NCBI GenBank assembly: GCA_020160975.1
Contig: JAIUPJ010000001.1
Coordinates: 570,001 to 602,000, forward strand
From: Candidatus Saccharimonadota bacterium
Lineage (GTDB): Bacteria; Patescibacteriota; Saccharimonadia; Saccharimonadales; Saccharimonadaceae
Length of the DNA: 32,000 bases
Direction: 5' to 3'
Position numbers and translations under genes: made by a program. Below are positions 1 to 32,000 of the stretch, piece by piece. The notes beneath the pieces are model-generated. The model did no database searches. It was not told where the DNA came from and worked only from the letters and a program-made list of their open reading frames with translations. Each line of letters opens with the position of its first letter. The first letter of the stretch is position 1.

Positions 1-225
1 GTAACGTGGAGCTTAAAAAAGACGGAAGCAATCGATTTCACGAAACCATTTATGTGGTTCGATGACGACTGTTATACTGGGGAGAAGATTGATCTCTACG
101 AGCACGGAGTGTTCAATTCATGGATTGAGGTTAATTTAACTAAATATCCAGATCAAATGGTGCATGAACTCAAGCTTTTGAAATCCATCATTGTCGATCA
201 ACGGGGCGGTCAAGACGGTTATTGA
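1..225 (+). CDS. HAD-superfamily hydrolase-like protein, C-terminal part (5' end outside window)
   Basis: Frame 1 is open from the window edge to TGA at 223-225. The translation ...TKPFMWFDDDCYTGEKIDLYEHG... carries an acidic WFDDD cluster like HAD motif IV. A matching N-terminal HAD fragment lies at 901-1008. Confidence 0.5.
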   Translation, partial: VTWSLKKTEAIDFTKPFMWFDDDCYTGEKIDLYEHGVFNSWIEVNLTKYPDQMVHELKLLKSIIVDQRGGQDGY

Positions 226-379
226 TGTCACTTTTATTTACACTAAGACCTTGAAAGTGGGCGGCTTATTAGGTATCGTCGAGATGGAATCGTAGAGTAT
301 AAGTAAAAATAAAATACAATGTGAGCGCCAAGAGCTGTGCGCAACTGCGGTGCAACTTCATTGTTAAGGAGTTACAAAA

Positions 380-904
380 ATGGAAAATTATGTAATCTTA
401 GGTCTAATTGTTCTAGCAATAGTCTTATTTAAGCTGGTCCTATCGAGCGCCTCGACCAAGCGTAAAGTACTCAAAGATAACCTTTATTCTTACGCGGCAA
501 AAAGCTTTATGATGACTCAGACTGAGAGTGAATTCTTTTTAAAACTAGACCATGTTGTGAGTGAGCGCTACCGTGTATTTCCTCAGGTTCATCTTTCAGC
601 CCTGCTTGACCACAAAGTAAAAGGTCAGGATTGGAAGTTTGCGTTCCGACACATCAACGGCAAGTCTGTGGATTTCGTACTATGTGATAAGGAAACACTC
701 CGACCAACCTACGCAATAGAACTTGACGACCTAACTCATGAACAATCTGATAGGCGAAAACGCGACTTAGAGGTAGAGCGTATTTTCAAAGAGGCAAACC
801 TTCCATTGGTACGATTTAAAAATAAAAGTGTAAGCGAGACTGAAATCATCCAAGCCTTATCTAACGCAAGGAAGCTGTCAGAGTCGAATGGGCAAAGAGT
901 ATGA
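380..904 (+). CDS. DUF2726-like protein (restriction-endonuclease-like fold) with N-terminal membrane anchor
   Basis: 174-aa ORF with SD-like AAGGAG 8 nt upstream. It has an N-terminal hydrophobic helix. The core ...ESEFFLKL...RVFPQV...SVDFVLCD...AIELDD.TH... matches my memory of the DUF2726 family pattern. Confidence 0.7.
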   Translation: MENYVILGLIVLAIVLFKLVLSSASTKRKVLKDNLYSYAAKSFMMTQTESEFFLKLDHVVSERYRVFPQVHLSALLDHKVKGQDWKFAFRHINGKSVDFVLCDKETLRPTYAIELDDLTHEQSDRRKRDLEVERIFKEANLPLVRFKNKSVSETEIIQALSNARKLSESNGQRV

Positions 905-1008
905 AACCAATAATTTACATAGACATTGACGGGGTGCTACTGGCAAATGAAGAGAACTTGACCATCGGTGGGGCAGAGTTTACAGCATTCTGTAAATACG
1001 CGCTGTAA
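901..1008 (+). pseudogene. HAD-like N-terminal fragment (35 codons, truncated)
   Basis: The ATG overlaps the upstream TGA (ATGA). The translation is MKPIIYIDIDGVLLANEENLTIGGAEFTAFCKYAL*, where IDIDGVL is HAD motif I (DxDG). The ORF stops after 35 codons, and no intact continuation exists in any frame before 1120. Confidence 0.5.
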
Positions 1009-1119
1009 TTGCGCTCATTTTCGCTCATAACTGCACCTCCTCGTGGCTCATTATTGCTATGATCCAATTCTATACATACCGTGTCCGATTTGTAGCGTTC
1101 TACCTCTGTTAAAGAGTTC

Positions 1120-1199
1120 GTGACCTGTAAGCGGAGCCAAGACAAGATATTTGAGCAGAAGTCCCGTAAGCATTCACGCTACTGGGCTTCTGCTATACT
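1120..1199 (+). repeat. cassette-junction module copy A (box + hairpin/T-run + extended -10)
   Basis: Box GTGACCTGTAAGCGGAGCCAAG at 1120-1141. Hairpin AGAAGTCCC...GGGCTTCT at 1157-1191. TGCTATACT with the -10 at 1194-1199. The ATG of the next gene follows 6 nt later at 1206. Confidence 0.8.
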
Positions 1200-1205
1200 C
1201 GATTC

Positions 1206-2156
1206 ATGAGAACAGTGAATATTGAAGAGTACGGTGAGCCAGAAGTTTTAAAGATTAAGAATATTCCAAAACCAACAATCCGAAGTGGTGACATCTTGGT
1301 CAGGATAAAGGCGACTGCAGTGACCGCCGCCGACTCACGAATCAGGGGTGCGAGATTTCCGAAGGGTTTTGGTTTTCTTGCTAAACTGGTTTTTGGAATT
1401 ACCAAGCCGAGAATAAAAATACTAGGCAGTACTTACTCGGGTATTGTAGAGCAGGTTGGAAAAAACGTATCGCAGTTTCATGTCGGTGATGAAGTCTGCG
1501 GCATGACAGGTGTTCAAATGGGAACATACGCAGAGTATATTAGAATTTCAAAGTATAAAAGCATCGCCTTTAAGCCGAACGGTGTTGCTCACGAAGATGC
1601 TGCTGGCTTATTGTTTGGCGGAACAGCGGCATTATATTTCGTCCGCGATAAGCTGGGTGTGAAAAAAGGTGAAACGGTTGTAATCAATGGTGCCTCGGGT
1701 GCTGTTGGTACGAACGCTATACAACTTGCAAAGTATTATGGTGCTAAAGTCACAGGTGTAACAAGCAGTAAAAATTCCACATTGGTGGAGAGGTTAGGAG
1801 CAGAAGACATAATAGATTACGCTAAGCAGGATCTTGTGAGTGCGGGCAAGAAATTTGACGTTGTTTTAGATACAGTCGGCAATATTTCGCCTCAGGCAGC
1901 GAAAACGTTACTTACCAAGAAGGGTCGAGCAGGGTTGATGGTCGGTACTTTGTGGGAAGGGATGGTGGCTCGTGGTCAAGTCATGACGGGGACTGCTACT
2001 GAAAAGAAAGAAGATATTGAATTTTTACTAGAGCTGACCGAACAAGGCAAAATCAAAGTAGTCATTGATAAAATATATGAACTTGATGATATCGTGGCTG
2101 CGCACCGCTATACTGATAGCGGTAGCAAAGTTGGCAACGTGATAGTTCGAATGTAG
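1206..2156 (+). CDS. NAD(P)H:quinone oxidoreductase / medium-chain (zinc-type) dehydrogenase-reductase family
   Basis: 316 aa. It has a GroES-like N-terminal domain (EPEVLKIKNIPKPTIRSGDILVRIKATAV). The Rossmann motif is INGASGAVGTNAIQLAKYYGAKV. The C-terminus ...HRYTDSGSKVGNVIVRM is typical of Qor-like MDR proteins. Confidence 0.85.
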   Translation: MRTVNIEEYGEPEVLKIKNIPKPTIRSGDILVRIKATAVTAADSRIRGARFPKGFGFLAKLVFGITKPRIKILGSTYSGIVEQVGKNVSQFHVGDEVCGMTGVQMGTYAEYIRISKYKSIAFKPNGVAHEDAAGLLFGGTAALYFVRDKLGVKKGETVVINGASGAVGTNAIQLAKYYGAKVTGVTSSKNSTLVERLGAEDIIDYAKQDLVSAGKKFDVVLDTVGNISPQAAKTLLTKKGRAGLMVGTLWEGMVARGQVMTGTATEKKEDIEFLLELTEQGKIKVVIDKIYELDDIVAAHRYTDSGSKVGNVIVRM

Positions 2157-2173
2157 TCGTCTCGGTTCAGTTC

Positions 2174-2251
2174 AAGACCGTAGTGGTGAGCCAAGACAAG
2201 ATATTTGAGCAGAAGTCCAGTAAGTATTCACGCTGGACTTTTTGCTATACT
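2174..2251 (+). repeat. cassette-junction module copy B
   Basis: Box AAGACCGTAGTGGTGAGCCAAG at 2174-2195. The next 31 nt are identical to copy A. Hairpin AAGTCCAG...CTGGACTT at 2213-2240 plus TTT. TGCTATACT with the -10 at 2246-2251. Confidence 0.8.
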
Positions 2252-2289
2252 GAGATTATGAATCAACTAAAGATTTAGGAGAAAAAACA

Positions 2290-2667
2290 ATGGACAAAGT
2301 TACATGGTTTGAATTACCTGCAGACGATTTAAAACGTGCAGGTGAGTTTTATAGCGGAGTATTTGGATGGCAAACTCCAGATATGGGCATGGGTGATGGC
2401 AGCTTGCTTGCCCAGACAGCCCAGTCTGGAGAAGATATGCAGCCTTTAGAGAAGGGCACCATCAATGGAAGTATTGCGCCTCGCTCAGAGACTTTTAACA
2501 AACCACACATTGTTATTACAGTCAGTGACTTAGATGCTAAGATTGAGAAAGTTATTGCTGCTGGTGGTCGTATAATTCAACCGCGTCAAGAAGTGGATGG
2601 TATGATGGCCTTCGCAATAGTTTCCGATACCGAAGGTAATAACATTGGTATGATTCAGAACTACTAA
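2290..2667 (+). CDS. VOC family protein (glyoxalase/bleomycin-resistance/dioxygenase fold)
   Basis: 125 aa with SD AGGAGA upstream. The N-terminus VTWFELPADDLKRAGEFYSGVFGWQ is characteristic of small VOC proteins. Confidence 0.8.
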   Translation: MDKVTWFELPADDLKRAGEFYSGVFGWQTPDMGMGDGSLLAQTAQSGEDMQPLEKGTINGSIAPRSETFNKPHIVITVSDLDAKIEKVIAAGGRIIQPRQEVDGMMAFAIVSDTEGNNIGMIQNY

Positions 2668-2688
2668 TTTGACCATGATGTAAAGTCC

Positions 2689-2763
2689 GTGACCTGTAAG
2701 CGGAGCCAAGCAGGACAAGACTAAGTCAGAACTGTGAAAATGGTTCTGACTTTTTGTATACCC
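2689..2763 (+). repeat. cassette-junction module copy C
   Basis: Box GTGACCTGTAAGCGGAGCCAAG at 2689-2710, identical to copy A. Hairpin AGTCAGAAC...GTTCTGACT at 2724-2751 plus TTTT. A degenerate -10 (TGTATACCC) follows, with no + strand gene after it. The hairpin sits between convergent genes. Confidence 0.75.
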
Positions 2764-2788
2764 ATAGTAGAAATGAAACCGTAGAGGA

Positions 2789-3358
2789 TTAGGTATTTAG
2801 CATATTAAGCAACTTTACGGCTTTCGATGATACCGATTTTCTGTTATCCTTTTTCATTTTATTCAATCTTGGCACTAACCATGCTTTTAGCCTTGAATCA
2901 TTTGCTGCGAAATCAGTAAGTGTATCAGCGGTCGTATTCTGCACAATCCAGTCGCTCTCTGTCTCTAGATTATGTTTAAGCAGCTCAATAGCCTCATTGC
3001 GTTGTTTCTCTGTGATTTTGGTTCTTAATTCCTGGACTATCTGAGCAATAGACCATTTAGCTGAAGGCTGATCAAGATTCCAGCCAATATCATGAATAAG
3101 CCAATCAAACCTTTCAAGTAGCCATTCTGGTTTTGGCTGTGTGTTCACCGATAATGAATCACGATGGAGACCGCAAATTCGTTTAAGAGCACTGCTTACA
3201 CGTAAGCGAACAACCTCATCGTCTGAGCTATAAGTACGACAAAGCTCAATAAATAGTTGTCTTGAGCTGTCCTGCAGTACGTCTTCAGCAACAGAGACCG
3301 TTTCACCAAGCGAATTGGGATGTCCTCCAGTAAGCCTTTCTTCAATAGTTTTCTTCAT
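2789..3358 (-). CDS. alpha-helical HEAT-like repeat protein (possibly DNA alkylation repair protein family)
   Basis: The ORF track gives 2789..3421. I prefer the ATG at 3358 (MKKTIEERLTGGHPNSLGE...) because TATAAT plus 7 nt precedes it on the minus strand. The family assignment rests on overall helical-repeat resemblance only. Confidence 0.55.
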   Translation of the reverse strand: MKKTIEERLTGGHPNSLGETVSVAEDVLQDSSRQLFIELCRTYSSDDEVVRLRVSSALKRICGLHRDSLSVNTQPKPEWLLERFDWLIHDIGWNLDQPSAKWSIAQIVQELRTKITEKQRNEAIELLKHNLETESDWIVQNTTADTLTDFAANDSRLKAWLVPRLNKMKKDNRKSVSSKAVKLLNMLNT

Positions 3359-3445
3359 ACAACGTATTATACTTAATGCCAGAAGCGGAAGCATCTTTAG
3401 AACAATTATACTTTCAAACAATCCTGCTTAATCGTAGTTATGACT

Positions 3446-3513
3446 TCCTCTACCGTTGTGAGCCAAGCATAAACACTATCATGAAAGTCATGGTGTTTTT
3501 GCTTTGCTATAAT
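3446..3513 (+). repeat. cassette-junction module copy D
   Basis: Box ...CTACCGTTGTGAGCCAAG ends at 3467. Bulged hairpin AACAC..TCATGA/TCATG..GTGTT at 3472-3497 plus T-run. TGCTATAAT with the -10 at 3508-3513. ATG at 3521. Confidence 0.75.
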
Positions 3514-3520
3514 TGGAGCA

Positions 3521-3901
3521 ATGAGTTTAATTGCTCCTTTTCTGATAGTCTTCTTGTCTGGACTTGTTATATTCCAGACCCTACTAGCTTTTGGAGCACC
3601 ATTCGGCAAGGCAGCATGGGGTGGTCAGCATGATGCAGTATTGCCACAAAAGTTGAGGATTTCAAGTGCTATTTCCGCAGTATTCCTGCTATTTATTATT
3701 TCGGTCATTTTGTCGTTTACAGGTAGCATAAGTCTATATACAAGCTCTTTTGAGATGGTTTTTCTATGGTTTACGGCAATCTATTTTGGTATCGGTATCA
3801 TTATGAATGCGATTTCACGGAGTAAAATCGAGCGGATCTGGTCGCCATATTCGGCTGTTCTGTGCGTATTGTTGATTATTTTATTAACGCAGGGAGTCTA
3901 G
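3521..3901 (+). CDS. small integral membrane protein (about 4 TM helices), unknown function
   Basis: 126-aa ORF, hydrophobic throughout. The start sits 7 nt after TATAAT (leaderless-type). Confidence 0.65.
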   Translation: MSLIAPFLIVFLSGLVIFQTLLAFGAPFGKAAWGGQHDAVLPQKLRISSAISAVFLLFIISVILSFTGSISLYTSSFEMVFLWFTAIYFGIGIIMNAISRSKIERIWSPYSAVLCVLLIILLTQGV

Positions 3902-3937
3902 TCTACTGCCATTTCGTGCTTAACTATCGTTATAACT

Positions 3938-4021
3938 TGTTCTATTGTTGTGAGCCAAGAAATATGTGTGATAAGAAGTCCAGTATCCATCCATGCTACT
4001 GGACTTCTTTTAATATATAAT
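3938..4021 (+). repeat. cassette-junction module copy E
   Basis: Box ...CTATTGTTGTGAGCCAAG ends at 3959. Perfect 12-bp hairpin AGAAGTCCAGTA...TACTGGACTTCT at 3974-4008 plus TTT. TATAAT at 4016-4021. ATG at 4028. Confidence 0.8.
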
Positions 4022-4027
4022 TTGAGC

Positions 4028-4321
4028 ATGAATAGCTATCTTGAAAAGCACCGCCTGTTATACGGACATATCGGTGCAATAATTGCACTGATTAGCGCCG
4101 CAATATATTTCGTAGTAATACCTGGCGAAGTGCTTGGAGTAAGCGGTATGCAAAAACTAGTCCTATTATACGGACACTCTTTATGTTGGGTTTTGTTAAG
4201 TATAGCAAGCTATCTATGGGGCATGAAAAAGCACAGAAAGTTGACGGCATTTTTTGCATATTCAGCATTTATTACGTATGTTATTTTTATCTGCACTTTA
4301 ATGATTACTAAATCCGCATAA
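4028..4321 (+). CDS. small integral membrane protein (about 3 TM helices), unknown function
   Basis: The ORF track gives 3950..4321, but its first 26 codons run through junction module E. The ATG at 4028 (MNSYLEKHRLLYGHIGAIIAL...) lies 6 nt after TATAAT. Confidence 0.6.
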   Translation: MNSYLEKHRLLYGHIGAIIALISAAIYFVVIPGEVLGVSGMQKLVLLYGHSLCWVLLSIASYLWGMKKHRKLTAFFAYSAFITYVIFICTLMITKSA

Positions 4322-4326
4322 ATTCT

Positions 4327-4405
4327 GTGGCCCGTAAGTTGAGCTAAGAGAACATAGTTTAGAATGACCTAGTGAGTATTCACGCTACTGGGTATTTTGA
4401 TAACA
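4327..4405 (+). repeat. cassette-junction module copy F (diverged)
   Basis: Box GTGGCCCGTAAGTTGAGCTAAG at 4327-4348. Hairpin CCTAGT...ACTGGG at 4368-4392, whose loop GAGTATTCACGCT is related to copies A and B. Then a T-run and TGATAAC. Confidence 0.6.
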
Positions 4406-4421
4406 ACTAAATCATCTAAAC

Positions 4422-4458
4422 TAGCACTCTTGACATGAGAGTGCTAATTTTATAAAAT
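4422..4458 (+). promoter_or_regulatory. CIRCE (HrcA operator) inverted repeat overlapping a sigma70-type promoter of hsp20
   Basis: TAGCACTC (4422-4429), N9, GAGTGCTAA (4439-4447), against the consensus TTAGCACTC-N9-GAGTGCTAA. TTGACA at 4430-4435 lies inside the spacer. TAAAAT at 4453-4458 follows after 17 nt. Confidence 0.85.
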
Positions 4459-4519
4459 GAAAGTAGAAGCTTTTATGCTTCTCTGGAAACCATTAATAAA
4501 ATGATGAAAGGAGAACAGT

Positions 4520-4945
4520 ATGAGCAACCTTGTAAAGTGGGATCCGTTTGCAGAACTTTCTGCATTACAAAAACAATTCTTTGGTGATGACTGGATGTCA
4601 CCCTTAAAAGGCGTTAACATTCCGACGACTGACGTCTTTACTAAAGATAATAACCTTGTAGTTGAGGCGCATCTGCCTAACTTTGAGCAGAAAGATGTCA
4701 ATATCGAAGTGGAGAACGGCGCACTGGTGATTAGCGCTGAACGCCACGAAAAAGAGGAAGATAAAGGCAAGCAATACGTTGTGCGCGAGAGTTCAAGCAG
4801 CTTTTATCGCCGCATTGCGCTACCTAAGCGTGCCGATGCCGACAAGGTCGAGGCGCACTTGGATGATGGAGTACTAAAAGTTAGCATTCCGCTCACACCA
4901 CTGCCTGAACCAAAGAAAATTGCTATCTCGTCGAAGAAGAAATAG
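4520..4945 (+). CDS. Hsp20/alpha-crystallin family small heat-shock protein
   Basis: 141 aa with SD AAAGGAGAA upstream. The alpha-crystallin domain pattern is ...PTTDVFTKDNNLVVEAHLPNFEQKDVNIEVENGALVISAER...SFYRRIALPKRADADKVEAHLDDGVLKVSIP. Confidence 0.9.
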   Translation: MSNLVKWDPFAELSALQKQFFGDDWMSPLKGVNIPTTDVFTKDNNLVVEAHLPNFEQKDVNIEVENGALVISAERHEKEEDKGKQYVVRESSSSFYRRIALPKRADADKVEAHLDDGVLKVSIPLTPLPEPKKIAISSKKK

Positions 4946-4964
4946 CAGTCGCGCGTTCTAACCT

Positions 4965-4991
4965 AAAAGGAGGCCTTAAGGCCTCCTTTTA
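4965..4991 (+). terminator. intrinsic terminator downstream of hsp20
   Basis: AAAAGGAGGCC TTAA GGCCTCCTTTT is a perfect GC-rich stem with a 4-nt loop and a T tail. It is symmetric and therefore potentially bidirectional. Confidence 0.8.
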
Positions 4992-5116
4992 GTTATAAAA
5001 CCTGATTCAAGATCTGGAATTTGTTAGTTAAACTCCTTTAAAAGGAGACACGCACTAAAACATGCGTTTCGTCTCTCATTTGTCTCATCTCATTCCCCCA
5101 CACCTGTAATTGTTTC

Positions 5117-5252
5117 ATGACCTGTATGGTGAGCCAAATAAGTTTAAAATTAACACCCGGTGATTCGGTTCTGATTTTTATTGCCCCGTTATAGGTGTAG
5201 CTACTATAATCTGAATATCGTTTACGTGAGAGGCTTAATTTATTGCTATACT
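5117..5252 (+). repeat. cassette-junction module copy G (expanded/degenerate)
   Basis: Box ATGACCTGTATGGTGAGCCAAA at 5117-5138. Only a weak hairpin plus T-run around 5153-5179. An extra -10-like CTATAAT lies near 5210. TGCTATACT with the -10 at 5247-5252. ATG at 5259. Confidence 0.6.
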
Positions 5253-5258
5253 GCAGGT

Positions 5259-5786
5259 ATGAGACTCGCGGTGCTTATAAGAGGTGTTACTCCGACAGGC
5301 AAAAATAAGGTGCCAATGGCGCAGCTACGTGAGCTATTAGAACTTTCGCCGGATTTTTCGAGTGTTCAGACTTATATCCAGAGCGGAAACGTTATCTTGG
5401 AAACAGATTTATCTCTACGGGAGACAGAGTAATTAATCCATAAAATAATCTTGGATAATTTTGGAAGCGATTTAGTTATTATTGCCAAAAATCACGAACA
5501 ATTACAAAGAAGCTTCAAAAATTACTCCATCAAAAATATACCAACAGAGCGCCAATATTATACATTTTTAAAAGAAGCACCAACAAGAGACGGTATAAAA
5601 AAATTGGCCGAACGGGACTTTGGAAATGACAAGTACCAAATTATCGGAGACATGGTTTATGTCGCATTTGCTACTAAAGCATCGGACTCACGACTTACTA
5701 ATAATGTTATTGAGCAGAAGTTAGGCGTAAGCGCAACGACAAGAAATTACAATACCATGAAAAAGTTAGTCGAATTAACTATTTAG
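5259..5786 (+). pseudogene. DUF1697 family gene interrupted by one in-frame TAA (5430-5432)
   Basis: The two ORF-track pieces (5181..5432 and 5451..5786) are in the same frame. The read-through translation MRLAVLIRGVTPTGKNKVPMAQLRELL...SGNVILETDLSLRETE*LIHKIILDNFGSDLVIIAK... aligns colinearly with the intact paralog at 8602-9132. The probable start is the ATG at 5259, 6 nt after TATACT. Confidence 0.75.
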
Positions 5787-5800
5787 AGTCTTTCTTAATT

Positions 5801-6090
5801 ATGGTGTGCGGCAGTCATGAAAATCGTCAGACCTTGGGGTTGACCTTATTCCTCCAGAAGGGTTTCCGCATCACTGAGACGACGAAGGATCACTACAAGC
5901 AGGGTATCGACGAGCGTATGCTGGCGACCGAGCCGTGGCGAGAGATCGTCTCCCAGATCAACAACCAGAATGAGGCCGTGCAGCTCCTGCAAGGGATCTA
6001 ACCCATATCCAAGGAGGATCTCGGCGTCAACGTCATCGAAGTGGAGAAGCAGGAGGACAGTGTCGGGTTCGTAGACCCGAGGAAGTAATT
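5801..6090 (+). other. GC-rich coding remnant of unknown origin (two frames, no intact gene)
   Basis: Hand count gives about 54% G+C over 5801-6100, against about 35-43% in sampled neighbouring lines. A 66-codon ORF (5801-6001) is followed by a protein-like stretch in another frame (PISKEDLGVNVIEVEKQEDSVGFVDPRK*). There is no SD or promoter, and I recognise no family. Confidence 0.4.
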
Positions 6091-6182
6091 TCCTAAATCA
6101 CACGCATGACTCGGGCCAGTCTCACTGATACCTATTTAACGTATCGAACAACTGGCCTGATTTCTTTGGGAATAAATATTTC

Positions 6183-6250
6183 AAGACCGCCATGCAGAGC
6201 CAGACTGAAGCACTATGATGAAACTCATGGTGTTTTTGTTTTGCTATAAT
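6183..6250 (+). repeat. cassette-junction module copy H
   Basis: Box AAGACCGCCATGCAGAGCCAGA at 6183-6204. Hairpin CACTATGA...TCATGGTG at 6211-6232 plus T-run, closely related to copy D. TGCTATAAT with the -10 at 6245-6250. Confidence 0.7.
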
Positions 6251-8533: not shown

Positions 8534-8601
8534 CGAAAAGCATGGACTTTACCTCTTTAGCTTGGCGAATAGGCTGATGGTTGACTGATACAATGGTAGG
8601 T

Positions 8602-9132
8602 ATGAGATATGTAGTATTGCTTCGCGGCATAAATGTTGGAGGAAATAATACCGTTAGTATGAGCGAGCTAAAGCGAATACTTTCGGAGGCGGGTTTCGAT
8701 GAGGTCGTAAGCTATATTAATTCTGGAAATATACTGCTGACTAGTGATCTCCCAGCTGAGGTTGTCAATGCACGGGTCGAAGAAACTATCAAAAGTAGCT
8801 TTGAACTAGACATTCCGGCTATCACGATAGCAAAGTCTGATTTCTTGCAAATTGCCGAGCAGTTACCAGCTAATTGGAAAAATGACAACGAAATGAGATG
8901 TGATTGTCTATTTCTATGGTCGGATGTCGACGCGCCAGAGGTGGTTGATACGTTGACGATAAGACCCGATATTGATCGTGTAAAATATGTTCCCGGCGCC
9001 CTATTTTGGTCAATTGACAGAAAAAATGTAACTCGAAGCGGTCTCGCAAAGATTATCGGTACGCCTACGTATAAACGAGCAACCATCCGTAATTGCAATA
9101 CAGTGCGAAAACTAGCCGCTCTGCTGGGATAG
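8602..9132 (+). CDS. DUF1697 domain-containing protein (intact paralog)
   Basis: MRYVVLLRGINVGGNNTVSMSELKRILSEAGFDEVVSYINSGNILL... is the canonical DUF1697 N-terminus. The ATG at 8602 lies 7 nt after TGATACAAT. The ORF track's TTG at 8581 is less likely. Confidence 0.85.
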   Translation: MRYVVLLRGINVGGNNTVSMSELKRILSEAGFDEVVSYINSGNILLTSDLPAEVVNARVEETIKSSFELDIPAITIAKSDFLQIAEQLPANWKNDNEMRCDCLFLWSDVDAPEVVDTLTIRPDIDRVKYVPGALFWSIDRKNVTRSGLAKIIGTPTYKRATIRNCNTVRKLAALLG

Positions 9133-9235: not shown

Positions 9236-9892
9236 ATGAATGTAAACAATGACTTACAAGATCCGAGAAAGCAACATAAAAAGGGTAAAATTCCTAGGCA
9301 GACGCAGGAGGAGCCCGGTCTTGAAACACAACTAACGCCTCGAGCAGATCATGGTGAGGGCGAGTACCGCGCGAGCAACCGTCTTGTAGGCAGAAAAGCG
9401 CTCATAACAGGAGGTGATAGTGGCATTGGTCGAGCCGTAGCAATCGCGTATGCACTCGAAGGAGCAGATGTGGTGATAGCGTATCTACCCAAAGAACAAT
9501 CGGATGCCGATGCTGTCATAAAGGAAATTAGAGCAGCTGGGAGGAAGGTCGTTGCGATTCCAGGAGATCTTACTGAAGAAAAGTATGTTAGGGATTTGGT
9601 GAAACAAGCGGCAAAAGGGCTAGGTGGTTTGGACATCGTGGTAAATAACGCTGGCAAACAGATATATAACGACGACTTGTCAACGATGCCAACGAGTCAG
9701 CTGGTGGATACCTTTACGGTTAATGTATTTGCCATGTTCTGGATTGTTCAAGAGGCGCTGCGTTATCTGAAGGCTGGCTCGACTATTATCAATACCACCT
9801 CTATACAAGCGACCCAGCCTTCGCCTGGTTTGTTGGATTACGCTGCAACCAAGGGGGCAATTACCAATTTTACGAAAGGGCTTGCTCGATGA
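9236..9892 (+). CDS. SDR family oxidoreductase (YhdF/general-stress-protein-39-like), C-terminally truncated, probable pseudogene
   Basis: It has TGGDSGIGRA (NAD-binding), NNAG and YAATK (catalytic YxxxK). The ORF ends at ...TKGLAR*, where family members continue for about 60-70 more residues (the ...GIRVN.VAPGPIWTPL... region). ATG at 9236 follows GGGAG. Confidence 0.75.
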   Translation: MNVNNDLQDPRKQHKKGKIPRQTQEEPGLETQLTPRADHGEGEYRASNRLVGRKALITGGDSGIGRAVAIAYALEGADVVIAYLPKEQSDADAVIKEIRAAGRKVVAIPGDLTEEKYVRDLVKQAAKGLGGLDIVVNNAGKQIYNDDLSTMPTSQLVDTFTVNVFAMFWIVQEALRYLKAGSTIINTTSIQATQPSPGLLDYAATKGAITNFTKGLAR

Positions 9893-29350: not shown

Positions 29351-32000
29351 CTATCTCGTATAGTACGGTGTATCATCTGGCATCTGCAAGCCCCCGGTAA
29401 ACGTTCGACCGTGCATGAGTCGTTTGCCAGGATCGGCGGTGAACTGAAAGGTGAGATCGGTGATGGTCGGTCCACGGGACACATCATCGGGATAACCAAA
29501 GGCCTGCGAGCTGTCGACAGTGACATTGAAAAAGAAGTAGCGTCCGCAGCTGATATTGGCACCACTGCCGTCTTTGACGATGTATGCTCCAGGTGTGCCC
29601 AGGGTGACATTACCAAAGCTGGTCTCTTGTCCCCATGTTGTCATGGTGGCACATTTGTTTGCGGTTTGCTGGTTAGCCATACTGCGGTATTTTAGTTGCC
29701 AACGAGCGCCAATGGAATTATCGACACCATTCATCAACCATGAGTTCGGGAACACATCACTGTCCGTGTCCATCATGAGTGAATATTTTGCGATTTGTGG
29801 CTGGGAGAGAACTGTTGTTTGCTGCGTGGCTGGCGTAGCATAGGTAAGTGTTGCACCACAGCCTCCACCAGTCACATAAATTTTGCCTTCGTGATACACC
29901 GCTCCGGCACCATAGCGAGCGCCTGTGTAGCGTTGGTTAGTTTCATACCATTCGCCGACACCGGTAGGGTTGTTACCGGTTGCGATAGTGGTGTTTGCAC
30001 TGACGGGAGCAACCAGCGTGGATGGATCGCAGGTCGTTGCATTGGTGCGTCCTCCAATGAGGTAGATATACCCATTTGCCGCCACCGCTTCAGCCTGGGT
30101 GTGGCTTGCGGGCAGGCCTGAAGTGAATGTCCATGTGCCTGCCGTGCCATTGGTGGCATTGATTTGAGAATACTGTACGTCGCTCAGGTAGTTTGTACCG
30201 TCAAACCCACCAAAGAGATAGAGGTTGTTGGCATAAGCGACCGCAGCGGTACCACTGCGGGCTGCAGTAAATGGTGTACTGGCTGTCGACCAGGCAGTCG
30301 CAATATTGCCACCATTACTTAACTGAGGGCTGACATAGACGGTATTGCAGACGTTGCTCGCTGTACAGCCAGCACCTGTGCCGCTACCGCCAATCACGTA
30401 GAGACGATCGTTCCACACGGCAGCACCGAAGTTGGTTCGAGCAGCGGGTAGACCGTTTGTCGCCGTTGCCCAGGAGGTGATATTGCCAGCTGTAGGTGTG
30501 GCATAGTAGACTTCGGTGCGTCGATCTGTCGCAGTGCTGCTTTGACCGCCAATGTAGTAGAGTGACCCACCTGCAGCACGAAGCTTGCCCCACGTGCGAA
30601 CGGCGGGAAGCGGAGCGGTCGTGTTGCTCCATGCTCCTACGGCACCGTTGCTATCGATAGTGGCGTATGAAACTGTGTCGACAGCCGTGGTGCAGTCTGT
30701 CGCACTGACACATCCGCCGGCAACGTAGAGGGTGCCATTGAGGATGGTGGCACTGGCACCGATTCGGTTGGGGTTTGTGGTGTAGGTGTTGGCACTTGTT
30801 GTATAGCCAGCGGGCGCTCCACTATCGTTGTTGTATACCTGAAAGGTTTGAATGATATTGGTCGGACCCCCTGTGTTGCAGGTAGGGCTTGCGCCAATGG
30901 TACATCCGCCAATCACGTAGGCATATGAGTTTGAGACTGGTACGGTGAGACCCCAGCGTTGATTGATTTCTACGGCAGAAACATTCCAGCCATCTCCAGG
31001 CTCTCCTAGGCTGCCATCGGATACATTGATTTTGATAAACTCAATGTCAGCCAAGACGCCTGTTGCAGCCTCGTAGCCTCCCACCGCATAGAGATAGCCG
31101 TTGTAGCCAAAGGCGGCCGAACGTCGTCGTCCTACTGACATCTGATTGGGGGATTCAGTCCAAGTTGTCCCACTGACTGCAACGACATTGTTGTTGTTAT
31201 CGATTTTTGCATAGTGCACAGTTTTCTGGTCAACGAGATTTGGCGAGACACCGCCAATCAAGTACACGTAGTTGGCGTACACCGTACCACTCATGATGCC
31301 TAGGCCAGTCCCAGTGGCACCGGGAATGGTGCCGATTTGCAACTGGCCAGTGGTCGTGCAGCCAGCGATAGCTCCGCTCGCCTGGATATTGCACTTGTAG
31401 ACATTCTGGCTGTAGTTTGTGCACCCTGCAGCATCAGTCACTGAGCATCCGCCAAATACAAACAGGTTACCAGGGTTATTCGTCGCATCGGCTGGGTTTG
31501 GTCGCGCATAGGCGAACAGGTATGAGACGGAGTTCATGCCAAGGCCTGTCATGCTCTGAGTTGTCCACGGGCCGATACTACCATTTGAGTTGAGTGTGGT
31601 ACGAAGCAGAGTATTGGTGTTTCCGGCACCATCAAGTCCGCCAACGAGATAGAGCCGGCCACCAAACACGACTGGGCTTGAAGCGCCAATGCCGCCTGTA
31701 ATAGTGTTGGTGGTATCAACACACCAAATATTTCCTCGCAGCGTGTTTGGTGCTGTGCAGGTCGGCGCTGTCATGGTTCCTGTGGAAGAGATTGCTGTGT
31801 AGGCGACATTGCTTGACATGGCGGTACAAGCTTCACTGGTACACCCACCTATGATGTAGAGATAGCCATTGGTAATAATAGCGGCGTTGAGTATATTGCC
31901 GACAAAAGTAGTCCCAGGCATATTACAGCTTGTGGGCGTCCCGCCACTACAAGGTGCGGTGCCGGCTGGGACGGTTGTTCCTACAGTTGAAGCATCACCA
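29351..32000 (-). CDS. very large Kelch/beta-propeller-repeat surface protein (partial; N-terminus outside window)
   Basis: The frame stays open through 31922-32000 (…GDASTVGTTVPAGTAPCSGGTPTSCNMPGTT…), so the ATG at 31921 is internal. At least 12 repeats of about 50-60 aa carry the signature (L/I)Y(V/L/A)(I/V/F)GG, often followed by a Cys pair (GGCTSEAC, GGCSVTDAAGC, GGCTIGASPTC, GGCVSATDC). A non-repeat C-terminal domain of about 170 aa follows. Confidence 0.85.
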   Translation of the reverse strand, partial: GDASTVGTTVPAGTAPCSGGTPTSCNMPGTTFVGNILNAAIITNGYLYIIGGCTSEACTAMSSNVAYTAISSTGTMTAPTCTAPNTLRGNIWCVDTTNTITGGIGASSPVVFGGRLYLVGGLDGAGNTNTLLRTTLNSNGSIGPWTTQSMTGLGMNSVSYLFAYARPNPADATNNPGNLFVFGGCSVTDAAGCTNYSQNVYKCNIQASGAIAGCTTTGQLQIGTIPGATGTGLGIMSGTVYANYVYLIGGVSPNLVDQKTVHYAKIDNNNNVVAVSGTTWTESPNQMSVGRRRSAAFGYNGYLYAVGGYEAATGVLADIEFIKINVSDGSLGEPGDGWNVSAVEINQRWGLTVPVSNSYAYVIGGCTIGASPTCNTGGPTNIIQTFQVYNNDSGAPAGYTTSANTYTTNPNRIGASATILNGTLYVAGGCVSATDCTTAVDTVSYATIDSNGAVGAWSNTTAPLPAVRTWGKLRAAGGSLYYIGGQSSTATDRRTEVYYATPTAGNITSWATATNGLPAARTNFGAAVWNDRLYVIGGSGTGAGCTASNVCNTVYVSPQLSNGGNIATAWSTASTPFTAARSGTAAVAYANNLYLFGGFDGTNYLSDVQYSQINATNGTAGTWTFTSGLPASHTQAEAVAANGYIYLIGGRTNATTCDPSTLVAPVSANTTIATGNNPTGVGEWYETNQRYTGARYGAGAVYHEGKIYVTGGGCGATLTYATPATQQTTVLSQPQIAKYSLMMDTDSDVFPNSWLMNGVDNSIGARWQLKYRSMANQQTANKCATMTTWGQETSFGNVTLGTPGAYIVKDGSGANISCGRYFFFNVTVDSSQAFGYPDDVSRGPTITDLTFQFTADPGKRLMHGRTFTGGLQMPDDTPYYTR

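Follow-up and report, generated by a model that had tools for sequence, protein, structure and literature searches.

What kind of locus places a row of small, functionally unrelated genes behind repeated copies of one junction element? We examined a 32 kb stretch of a Saccharibacteria (TM7) genome, referred to here as the window. An earlier note, made from the sequence alone, proposed that it contains an integron-like array of promoter-carrying single-gene cassettes, with a conserved box as a candidate recombination site. Our analysis supports this interpretation. The cassettes are swapped between strains and species at an 8-base core, GAGCCAAG, copied from the end of the tRNA-Asn gene, probably by a large serine recombinase (LSR). 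We could not find a published description of such a gene-capture platform.

Junction modules in the window

First, we searched for copies of the junction element. Profile HMMs built from the copies gave eight significant hits in the window, at the cores of modules A to H, all on the + strand between 1.1 and 6.3 kb (Table 1). The next best hit anywhere in the 32 kb has E > 0.6. Exact GAGCCAAG occurs 5 times, all on the + strand within 1134-3959, against about one expected in 64 kb of both strands. The earlier note had placed the eight copies correctly to within a few bases, but the relic that it suggested at 321-332 receives no support.

Each module comprises a conserved left arm, a variable terminator hairpin and, in most copies, an extended -10 with a leaderless start. 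The left arm reads AGTYCGTGACCtGTAwGCkGAGCCAAG, and the conserved box is longer than the about 22 nt described in the note. It extends over 27 nt in type 1 (A, B, C, F, G and H), about 46 nt in type 2 (D 3422-3467, E 3914-3959), and about 55 nt or more in A. Seven of the modules fold with z between -2.0 and -4.7, whereas copy G has no convincing hairpin (z = -0.2). The pairing is kept by compensatory changes, as the note had claimed. In 23 relatives of the A/B/E/F hairpin, 91.7% of cells pair, against 33-53% when the partner is slid, and there are 27 double-change cells, a value reached by 0 of 500 shuffles. The TGnTATAmT element with a start codon 6-7 nt later was also confirmed. Across related loci, 37 of 156 modules have an extended -10, against 5 in the shuffled control, and in 26 of those 37 a start codon 5-8 nt later opens an ORF of at least 60 codons. 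The hairpin and -10 are indeed a terminator and a promoter.

The gene content reported in the note was confirmed: quinone oxidoreductase (QOR), VOC, HEAT-like, two membrane proteins, Hsp20 with CIRCE, and a broken DUF1697. The G+C content is about 0.40 in the array and about 0.50 in the rest of the window. The features are collected in Table 1, in which L numbers denote the related loci retrieved from other genomes.

Table 1 Features of the cassette array and comparison with related loci (L numbers).
Position	Strand	Feature	Components	Observations
1021..1133	+	Long left arm (box 1L) of module A	Reverse complement is the promoter/leader and first codons of a truncated small Zn-ribbon/HTH gene, followed by the last ~17 codons of an LSR gene (WLRLQVTNSLTEVERYK)	Aligns with the region between the small ORF and the first core in L034, L058 and L093, and with the LSR tail in L055 and L119
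1115..1199	+	Module A	Left arm 1115-1133; core GAGCCAAG 1134-1141; hairpin 1156-1192; TGCTATACT 1191-1199; leaderless ATG at 1206	
1142..2195	+	Cassette 1	Right arm; quinone oxidoreductase gene 1206-2156; left arm and core B (2188-2195)	Pfam ADH_N/ADH_zinc_N; found alone, after VOC, or after the HEAT-like cassette in L013, L014, L017 and L018
2196..2710	+	Cassette 2	Hairpin 2211-2242; TGCTATACT 2243-2251; 6-codon leaderless mini-ORF from 2258; VOC/glyoxalase gene 2290-2667; left arm and core C (2703-2710)	97.9-98.4% identical in species representatives L033 (2196-2708) and L086 (2196-2710); follows a real tRNA-Asn directly in L014
2711..3467	+	Cassette 3	Terminator hairpin 2723-2752; HEAT-like gene on the minus strand 2789-3358/3421; type 2 left arm 3422-3459; core D 3460-3467	Block 2701/2703-3467 lies directly behind tRNA-Asn, before QOR, in L018; L017 has the same block before QOR, with no tRNA found in that locus
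3468..3959	+	Cassette 4	Hairpin about 3468-3501; TGCTATAAT 3505-3513; leaderless membrane-protein gene 3521-3901; type 2 left arm 3914-3951; core E 3952-3959	
3960..4348	+	Cassette 5	Hairpin 3973-4009; TATATAAT ending at 4021; leaderless membrane-protein gene 4028-4321; left arm and core F (GAGCTAAG 4341-4348)	95% identical over 3962-4348 in L118
4349..5138	+	Cassette 6	Hairpin 4359-4400; CIRCE operator/promoter 4421-4458; Hsp20 gene 4520-4945; left arm and core G (GAGCCAAA 5131-5138)	L022 diverges from the window at 5137
5139..6204	+	Cassette 7	Decayed right arm; TGCTATACT 5244-5252; broken DUF1697 gene 5259-5786; 66-aa ORF 5801-6001; left arm and core H (GAGCCAGA 6197-6204)	Gene intact (171 aa) in L007
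6205..9878	+	Distal, decayed part of the variable island	Hairpin 6207-6236; TGCTATAAT 6242-6250; frameshifted membrane gene; then genes without recognisable modules	Strain L022 rejoins the window at 9878

Cassette exchange at the core

Next, we compared strains and found cassette gain, loss and reordering with breakpoints at the box. Near-identical QOR, VOC and HEAT-like units occur in other strains and species, in other orders and contexts. L004 and L006 lack the VOC cassette, and their B-left/core/C-right junction shares only the 8-nt core, whereas L014 has the order VOC then QOR. The exact VOC protein is indexed in 609 blocks of the sequence collection and lies in unrelated contexts in the loci fetched. 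Homology blocks begin and end at the cores, at 1132-1136, 2183-2188 and 2701-2703 on the left and at 2195, 2710-2712, 3467 and 3959 on the right.

Comparison of 154 unique modules locates the exchange point. In this set, 224 pairs share the left arm but not the right, and 43 pairs share the right arm but not the left. Positions at or before -1 follow the left arm and positions at or after +9 follow the right arm, while positions 1-5 never differ and 6-7 rarely do. Modules lie on a single strand in each of 116 loci, with a median core-to-core spacing of 740 nt. Cassettes are inserted, lost and reordered by breakage and joining inside the core, always in one orientation, although all data come from metagenome assemblies and no circular cassette and no activity has been observed.

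The box mimics the 3' end of tRNA-Asn

The note did not recognise that the box is a tRNA-Asn 3' end mimic. Real tRNA-Asn genes end in GGAGCCA, and arm A matches the tRNA 3' end at 17 of 24 positions. Of the 21 tRNAs found in the first 125 loci, 18 are tRNA-Asn, and in 18 of 18 of those loci the tRNA is on the array strand and upstream of all modules. Arrays start at the 3' end of the genuine tRNA-Asn gene, or at the distal end of an element integrated there.

We also scanned one genome per species with a degenerate box pattern, which hit 95 stretches among 185,579 species genomes, about 75 of them in Saccharibacteria MAGs. The module is not a genome-wide terminator-promoter: the pattern usually hit only one stretch per genome, a lower bound since it covers only part of the type 1 boxes, and the module sits behind tRNA-Asn.

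A large serine recombinase is linked to the core

We then looked for a recombinase, which the note had suggested might lie just beyond the left edge. None is present in the window or within 10 kb upstream, and arrays that abut tRNA-Asn directly (L012, L014 and L018) also lack an LSR nearby. However, related loci contain a widespread Saccharibacteria LSR gene with the same core inside its own 3' end, a link that was not seen in the note. The protein has Resolvase, Recombinase and Zn_ribbon_recom domains and matches phrog_95, integrase, at 1e-75. The family has 1169 clusters at E <= 1e-60.

The core lies about 18 codons before the LSR stop in L055 and L119. The LSR ORF overlaps a convergent tRNA-Asn by exactly 41 nt in L131-L134 and L137, and a convergent tRNA-Asn also overlaps the LSR 3' end by about 30-42 nt in L209, L210 and L213-L215. 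Whole integrated elements run from tRNA and core to a type 2 box and core or a 1L-like box and core, and measure 8.0-10.2 kb in L129, L132 and L209 and 15.2 kb in L172. The unintegrated-type junction, in which box 1L, core and LSR are followed by the small HTH ORF, occurs in L055, L126 and L128. L130 has the same junction of box, core and LSR, but no small ORF was detected there.

A model for the array

The window holds the proximal part of a variable island built from small cassettes of 0.4-1.1 kb. Each cassette begins with a right arm just after the core, which carries an intrinsic-terminator hairpin and usually its own promoter, with a -35-like TTCACG in the hairpin loop and an extended -10 directly after the stem. 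One gene follows, often translated from a leaderless mRNA, and then a left arm that mimics tRNA-Asn from the T-loop or anticodon loop to CCA, and the 8-bp core. The leading hairpin terminates the tRNA or the preceding cassette. A cassette can therefore be dropped anywhere in the array and still be expressed on its own.

We infer, with reasonable but not firm confidence, that the enzyme is the LSR, whose gene ends on the same core and whose 8-15 kb elements integrate at tRNA-Asn, with a distal arm that is exactly the box type 1L or type 2 seen in the window. The cassettes would then be recombinase-less miniatures that keep only the two attachment arms and are moved in trans, resembling integron cassettes or the ccr-less SCC elements. 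Some observations sit less easily with this view. Sequence conservation stops sharply at +8, so the right arm has no conserved sequence, whereas canonical LSR sites have two recognisable half-sites, and the left side of the logo is biased because many loci were fetched with a pattern taken from the left arm. Furthermore, canonical LSRs recombine only attP with attB, yet insertion or excision of an internal cassette such as VOC needs recombination between two sites that both look attP-like. Module A is read as the distal junction (attR) of an element lying to the left, which would carry the type I R-M, DUF2779 and DUF2726 cargo and whose small HTH gene is now truncated.

We considered whether the array could instead be the remains of many successive integrations of full-size LSR elements, or other elements, at tRNA-Asn, each later deleted down to one gene plus its attR arm, with the apparent shuffling reflecting different integration histories. 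Full-size elements with the same arms do integrate at the same site, and several window genes are decayed. Some rearrangements do not use the core, namely the loss in the window, between two CIRCE copies, of ClpB, which is present in L007, and a deletion from inside a membrane-protein gene. However, we regard this explanation as unlikely, since the same 515-bp VOC unit, 98% identical, ends exactly at two cores in different species and next to different neighbours, including directly behind tRNA-Asn and on either side of QOR. Dozens of different genes share the compact arm-terminator-promoter-gene-arm layout, which repeated independent deletions would not produce.

It is similarly doubtful that the modules act only as portable homology arms for RecA after natural transformation, without a site-specific enzyme. 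Many modules share 45-60 nt of near identity, for example A and B. The first ~20 nt after the core exist in two alleles that reassort with the hairpin (L007 and L016 against the window), which points to some exchange outside the core. Yet hybrid junctions join arms that share only 8-10 nt (B and C in L004, tRNA and VOC arm in L014, type 2 and VOC arm in L013), identity falls at -1 and at +9, and strict co-orientation and anchoring at one tRNA gene are not expected from homology alone. Least likely is a generic intergenic terminator-promoter repeat, or an RNA-level signal in which the box is a tRNA-like 3' tag for processing or stability of the upstream mRNA. The terminator and promoter are real and the box does resemble a tRNA 3' end, but the eight copies in 32 kb are confined to one island and most hit genomes show a single stretch in the species-genome scan, within the limited coverage of the pattern. 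The box also lacks the 5' strands needed for a T-arm or acceptor helix, Rfam finds nothing, and the same sequence is the end of integrated elements and lies inside the LSR gene.

Comparison with known systems

The array shares with integrons its rows of co-oriented, mostly single-gene cassettes of 0.4-1 kb, found in different species, with insertion, loss and reordering at one fixed point in a repeated junction site. Like an integrase-less CALIN array, it has no recombinase next to it. However, no IntI and no tyrosine recombinase was seen, and the junction is not an attC, having no R''/L''-L'/R' imperfect palindrome and no GTTRRRY. It is instead a conserved one-sided 27-nt tRNA-like arm plus an 8-bp core. 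Many cassettes carry their own terminator and promoter instead of depending on Pc, the array is anchored at a tRNA gene, and the candidate enzyme is a serine recombinase acting on double-stranded sites.

Staphylococcal cassette chromosome (SCC/SCCmec) composite islands, with the CcrA/B/C large serine recombinases, similarly involve an LSR-family enzyme (inferred here), integration at the 3' end of a conserved housekeeping gene with the element restoring that end, and tandem accretion of elements delimited by direct repeats of the core. Recombinase-less elements are thought to be moved in trans. Here the target is tRNA-Asn rather than rlmH, the LSR scores far below the CcrA/B/C cut-offs, and the host is a CPR bacterium. 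The units are single genes of about 0.7 kb with a standard terminator-promoter arm, not 3-60 kb islands. In two of the loci read in detail (L055 and L119) the LSR gene itself spans the crossover site.

Finally, tRNA-targeted integrative elements and cis-mobilisable elements (CIMEs) formed by tandem accretion also integrate at the 3' end of a tRNA gene, with a direct repeat of the tRNA 3' part at the far end and tandem arrays. Classical cases use tyrosine integrases that cross over in the anticodon loop or T-loop, whereas here the exchange is at the CCA end, the associated integrase is a serine recombinase and the units are single-gene cassettes.

Conserved modules and their arms

We first examined the repeat family that the earlier note described as the boundary of each cassette, and the window contains it. 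A direct-repeat search recovered the shared pieces, and profile HMMs built from the copies gave exactly eight significant hits (A–H), all on the + strand, with nothing else in the 32 kb coming close. The exact sequence GAGCCAAG occurs five times, all on the + strand within 2.8 kb. A further possible relic proposed in the note, at the left of the window, was not supported by any profile, and Rfam at gathering thresholds and a tRNA scan of the window both found nothing. The gene content and the lower G+C of the array were confirmed.

Features of the window and of related loci (L, loci retrieved for comparison)
Sequence	Position	Strand	Feature
Window	321–332		Supposed relic, not supported
Window	1021–1133		Truncated remnant of the small Zn-ribbon gene arrangement
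Window	1134	+	Core of module A
Window	2188	+	Core of module B
Window	2703	+	Core of module C
Window	3460	+	Core of module D
Window	3952	+	Core of module E
Window	4341	+	Core of module F
Window	5131	+	Core of module G
Window	6197	+	Core of module H
Window	4417–4450 and 4421–4447		CIRCE operator preceding Hsp20
Window	5259–5786		DUF1697 gene, split by a stop
Window	8581–9132		Second, intact DUF1697 paralogue
Window	29351–31921	−	856-aa Kelch-repeat protein
L011	311–380		Recurrent flank
L014	near 8742		Recurrent flank
L209	about 3490–3595		Recurrent flank
L172	after tRNA-Asn	reverse	Recurrent flank
L172	5072–11014	reverse	Three consecutive ORFs of 538, 994 and 429 aa
L207	1350–2130		Small Zn-ribbon/HTH gene, box 1L, core and terminator

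There are two kinds of left arm. Type 1 (A, B, C, F, G, H) has the 27-nt consensus AGTYCGTGACCtGTAwGCkGAGCCAAG, ending in GAGCCAAG, whereas type 2 (D, E) is about 46 nt long. To the right of the core there is no sequence conservation, but seven of the eight right arms fold into hairpins well beyond shuffled controls, the exception being G. The hairpin lies 6–22 nt downstream and reads as a terminator. In 23 relatives of the A/B/E/F hairpin the outer stem covaries, with 91.7% of cells pairing against 33–53% in slid controls, and with 27 double-change cells, a value reached by 0 of 500 shuffles. The loop is more conserved than the stem and reads TTCACG, 15 nt before TGnTATACT; the hairpin loop therefore holds a −35-like hexamer. 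Start codons follow 6–7 nt after the −10, as the note had stated. We found no convincing inverted symmetry between left and right arms.

Cassettes are mobile and exchange at the core

Next, we looked up the exact proteins of the window in public assemblies, which returned the same locus from other strains and the same genes in quite different places. In two of these loci, L004 and L006, the VOC cassette is missing and window 1–2195 is joined to 2703 onward, giving a junction of B-left, GAGCCAAG and C-right in which the two arms share nothing but the core. Elsewhere QOR+VOC, VOC alone, QOR alone and the HEAT-like unit appear as blocks of 96–99% identity, whose ends fall at 1132–1136, 2183–2188 and 2701–2703 on the left and at 2195, 2710–2712, 3467 and 3959 on the right. 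Locus L014 has VOC before QOR, while L017 and L018 have the HEAT-like unit before QOR. In two GTDB species representatives the VOC unit is 97.9–98.4% identical over 2196–2708 (L033) and 2196–2710 (L086).

Over 154 unique modules, 224 pairs share a left arm but have unrelated right arms, and 43 pairs show the converse. Positions up to −1 travel with the left arm and positions from +9 with the right arm, whereas positions 1–5 never differ and 6–7 rarely do. GAGCCAA is (near-)invariant in these modules and in tRNA-Asn, and the exchange is confined to it. Junction partners share only 8–10 nt, which is too little for assembler chimeras or for RecA-type recombination, and the same junctions recur in independent samples. 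Not every rearrangement uses the core. Relative to strain L007, this strain lost a 2.1-kb ClpB gene by recombination between two copies of the CIRCE promoter, and L004 carries an unrelated deletion.

The conserved box resembles the 3′ end of tRNA-Asn

In L014 the VOC cassette directly follows a genuine tRNA-Asn(GTT) gene that ends in GGAGCCA. Of the 21 tRNAs found in the first 125 loci, 18 are tRNA-Asn, and in 18 of 18 of those loci the tRNA is on the strand of the modules and upstream of all of them. Type 1 arms align without gaps to the tRNA from the T-loop to CCA, for example at 17 of 24 positions for A, and type 2 arms, judged by eye, resemble the stretch from the anticodon loop onward. 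A crossover at the T-loop or anticodon loop, as for tyrosine integrases, was rejected because the arm upstream of a given cassette differs right up to the core. A recurrent flank, sCAAGCAG..GACCnGGTyCCyrGrCC..CTCCTTGGT, directly follows genuine tRNA-Asn genes and the distal ends of integrated elements, and is also found in L116, L111 and L038. It is probably the native trailer of tRNA-Asn (the B′ arm), or a small structured RNA.

A degenerate pattern for the type 1 arm, scanned over one genome for each of 185,579 species, hit 95 stretches, of which about 75 are in Candidatus Saccharibacteria/Saccharimonadia MAGs and the rest are near the chance expectation. Long contigs and the one complete genome among the hits mostly show one stretch per genome, although the pattern covers only part of the type 1 boxes. 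The module is a lineage-wide, locus-specific feature, not a general intergenic signal. Modules lie on a single strand in each of 116 loci, and core-to-core spacing has a median of 740 nt with an interquartile range of 515–1054. Two contigs carrying the array are binned as Bdellovibrionales (L043, which holds QOR and the B/C-type junction) and Prolixibacteraceae (L096), probably through mis-binning of Saccharibacteria contigs.

A large serine recombinase is linked to the core

We clustered the ORFs of the related loci and observed a family next to first modules that includes full-length large serine recombinases (LSRs) with Resolvase, Recombinase and Zn_ribbon_recom domains. They match phrog_95, integrase, at 1e-75. 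In loci L055 and L119 the reverse complement of the long arm (box 1L, as in module A of the window) encodes the last ~18 codons of the LSR (..SWLRLQVTNSLTGVERYK), and the core therefore lies inside the 3′ end of the gene. Downstream on the same strand lies a small Zn-ribbon protein with a weak HTH_17 match, a candidate directionality factor. This small gene sits next to the first module, divergent from the array, in at least six species, and the window retains a truncated remnant of that arrangement. Among viral contigs there was one chance hit and one real hit, L207 (IMG/VR UViG_3300048586_000823), a contig classed as viral, and some of these elements may therefore be prophage-like.

A metagenome scan with the LSR found the integrated form. 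The LSR ORF converges on tRNA-Asn and overlaps it by exactly 41 nt in L131–L134 and L137, and a convergent tRNA-Asn also overlaps the LSR 3′ end in L209, L210 and L213–L215, by about 30–42 nt. Distant relatives of the LSR (24–36% identity; L143–L145, L199, L153–L176) overlap or closely precede convergent tRNA-Lys, tRNA-Glu, tRNA-Gln and tRNA-Ser genes, which suggests a broad clade of serine integrases that target tRNA 3′ ends. The LSR family is very large, with 1169 clusters at E <= 1e-60, some of them named as Candidatus Saccharibacteria proteins.

Complete integrated elements can be read from tRNA-Asn and the core, through the LSR and cargo, to a type 2 box and core at 8.0–10.2 kb in L129, L132 and L209. 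In L172 a 1L-like box preceded by the small ORF lies at 15.2 kb; of the three consecutive ORFs next to tRNA-Asn at the proximal end of this element, only the third matched the LSR query. A Pfam search of the neighbours of the LSR in L129 gave almost nothing. The reverse complement of the type 2 arm keeps an open frame (WLTT(V/I)EEVITTIKQ...), which fits an LSR tail in the excised form. Both box types of the window are therefore the distal attachment arms of two LSR element families that use the same core and the same tRNA. The 10 kb to the left of the window, seen in L001–L010, is a strain-variable defence island with different type I R-M systems, an HTH/SocA-Panacea pair, DUF3800, NUDIX-SRA, DUF2779 and DUF2726. 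By our model it is the cargo of an integrated LSR element whose distal end is module A, although walking upstream of the window did not reach the predicted tRNA-Asn/LSR end.

IS30-like transposases (L004, L011, L022) and a Replic_Relax protein (L011) were not consistently associated. The subterminal hairpins and the CTTG in the reverse core led us to consider HUH/IS91-type or IS200-type single-strand transposition, but no such transposase turned up in about 200 loci.

A model for cassette movement and its alternatives

The cassettes are compact units of the form right arm, gene, left arm, core, and behave as recombinase-less miniatures of the LSR elements. Each brings a terminator at its leading edge, which is needed by anything that lands directly behind a tRNA gene and also insulates neighbours. 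In at least a quarter of modules an extended −10 can be recognised, so those cassettes are expressed wherever they sit. The mobility of the units, the exchange point, the orientation, the tRNA anchor and the identity of the arms with LSR element ends are all observed in the sequences, whereas it is an inference that the LSR, possibly with the small HTH protein, moves the cassettes. There is no LSR in or near the window, the right arm has no conserved sequence, and canonical LSRs do not recombine two sites of the same type, yet that is what internal insertion or excision of VOC would need. The interpretation in the earlier note, an integron-like array of promoter-carrying cassettes with the box as a candidate recombination site, is supported and extended.

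Other origins of the array were weighed against this model. Pure accretion scars of full-size elements fit the decayed genes, such as the DUF1697 gene that is split here but intact (171 aa) in L007, but do not fit the identical 515-bp unit with exact ends in different neighbourhoods, or the uniform compact layout. Homology-driven exchange after transformation may add to the shuffling, since there are two reassorting alleles of the first ~20 nt after the core. However, it cannot make junctions that share only 8–10 nt, and it does not explain the anchor or the orientation. A generic terminator-promoter repeat or an RNA tag is excluded as the whole story by the distribution of copies, as far as the partial type 1 pattern shows it, and by the element ends. 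RNA-mediated mobility via a tRNA-like 3′ end was rejected because the mobile unit includes the terminator and promoter upstream of the transcription start.

Comparison with known mobile systems

In logic the array is closest to an integron, with co-oriented cassettes exchanged at a fixed point of the junction site, and it resembles an integrase-less CALIN. However, it does not show the two defining features. No Phage_integrase-type domain was found in the window ORFs of at least 100 aa, nearly all of which were scanned, nor in the genes called in L001–L030. The cassette boundary is an asymmetric arm and not an attC imperfect inverted repeat with R″/R′ (GTTRRRY) boxes, as judged without an attC covariance model.

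In machinery it is closest to SCC composite islands, which also use an LSR, target the 3′ end of a housekeeping gene, accrete in tandem between direct repeats of the att core and include recombinase-less members. Here the enzyme is not a Ccr, scoring 45–85 bits against cut-offs of 700–900 for CcrA/B/C and also below the cut-off for XisF, the target is tRNA-Asn and not rlmH (orfX), and the units are single genes with a standard expression arm. Classical tRNA-targeted islands use tyrosine integrases that cross over in the loops. The full-size elements in L129, L132, L172, L209 and L213 do show insertion at a tRNA gene 3′ end, a repeat of the tRNA 3′ part at the far end and an integrase at the tRNA-proximal end, while in the window only the distal arm (module A) is present. 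Dispersed intergenic repeats of the REP/BIME/MITE kind are scattered over the genome on both strands, whereas these copies are clustered and on one strand, mostly in one stretch per genome within the limits of the type 1 pattern.

What we regard as new relative to these systems is integron-like logic on sites inferred to be of LSR type, of which we found no description in the full-text literature searched, which does not cover subscription journals. There is a substantial chance, although we regard it as somewhat less likely than not, that Saccharibacteria carry a true functional analogue of the integron built on a different enzyme family. In this view an LSR captures, excises and reshuffles single-gene, self-expressed cassettes at a site modelled on the tRNA-Asn 3′ end, and the cassette pool circulates across many species of this reduced-genome, epibiotic phylum. 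This would imply an LSR that recombines sites of the same type, unlike the strict attP × attB rule. Integrons are the only well-understood platform that stockpiles and reshuffles single-gene cassettes, and they depend on a tyrosine recombinase and folded attC sites. A second platform based on serine-recombinase attachment arms would show that this architecture evolved more than once. It would also explain how ultra-small CPR genomes with almost no spare capacity keep a flexible pool of stress, detoxification and defence genes and exchange it across species. The LSR and its short, well-defined sites (tRNA-Asn end, 8-bp core) are candidates for engineering Saccharibacteria, which are hard to manipulate, and an LSR that tolerates many right-hand arms would also interest genome engineers. 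The boxes give a simple marker for the variable island in Saccharibacteria MAGs.

Outside the array, and unrelated to it, the window also encodes a Kelch-repeat protein that is unusual in size for a reduced genome.
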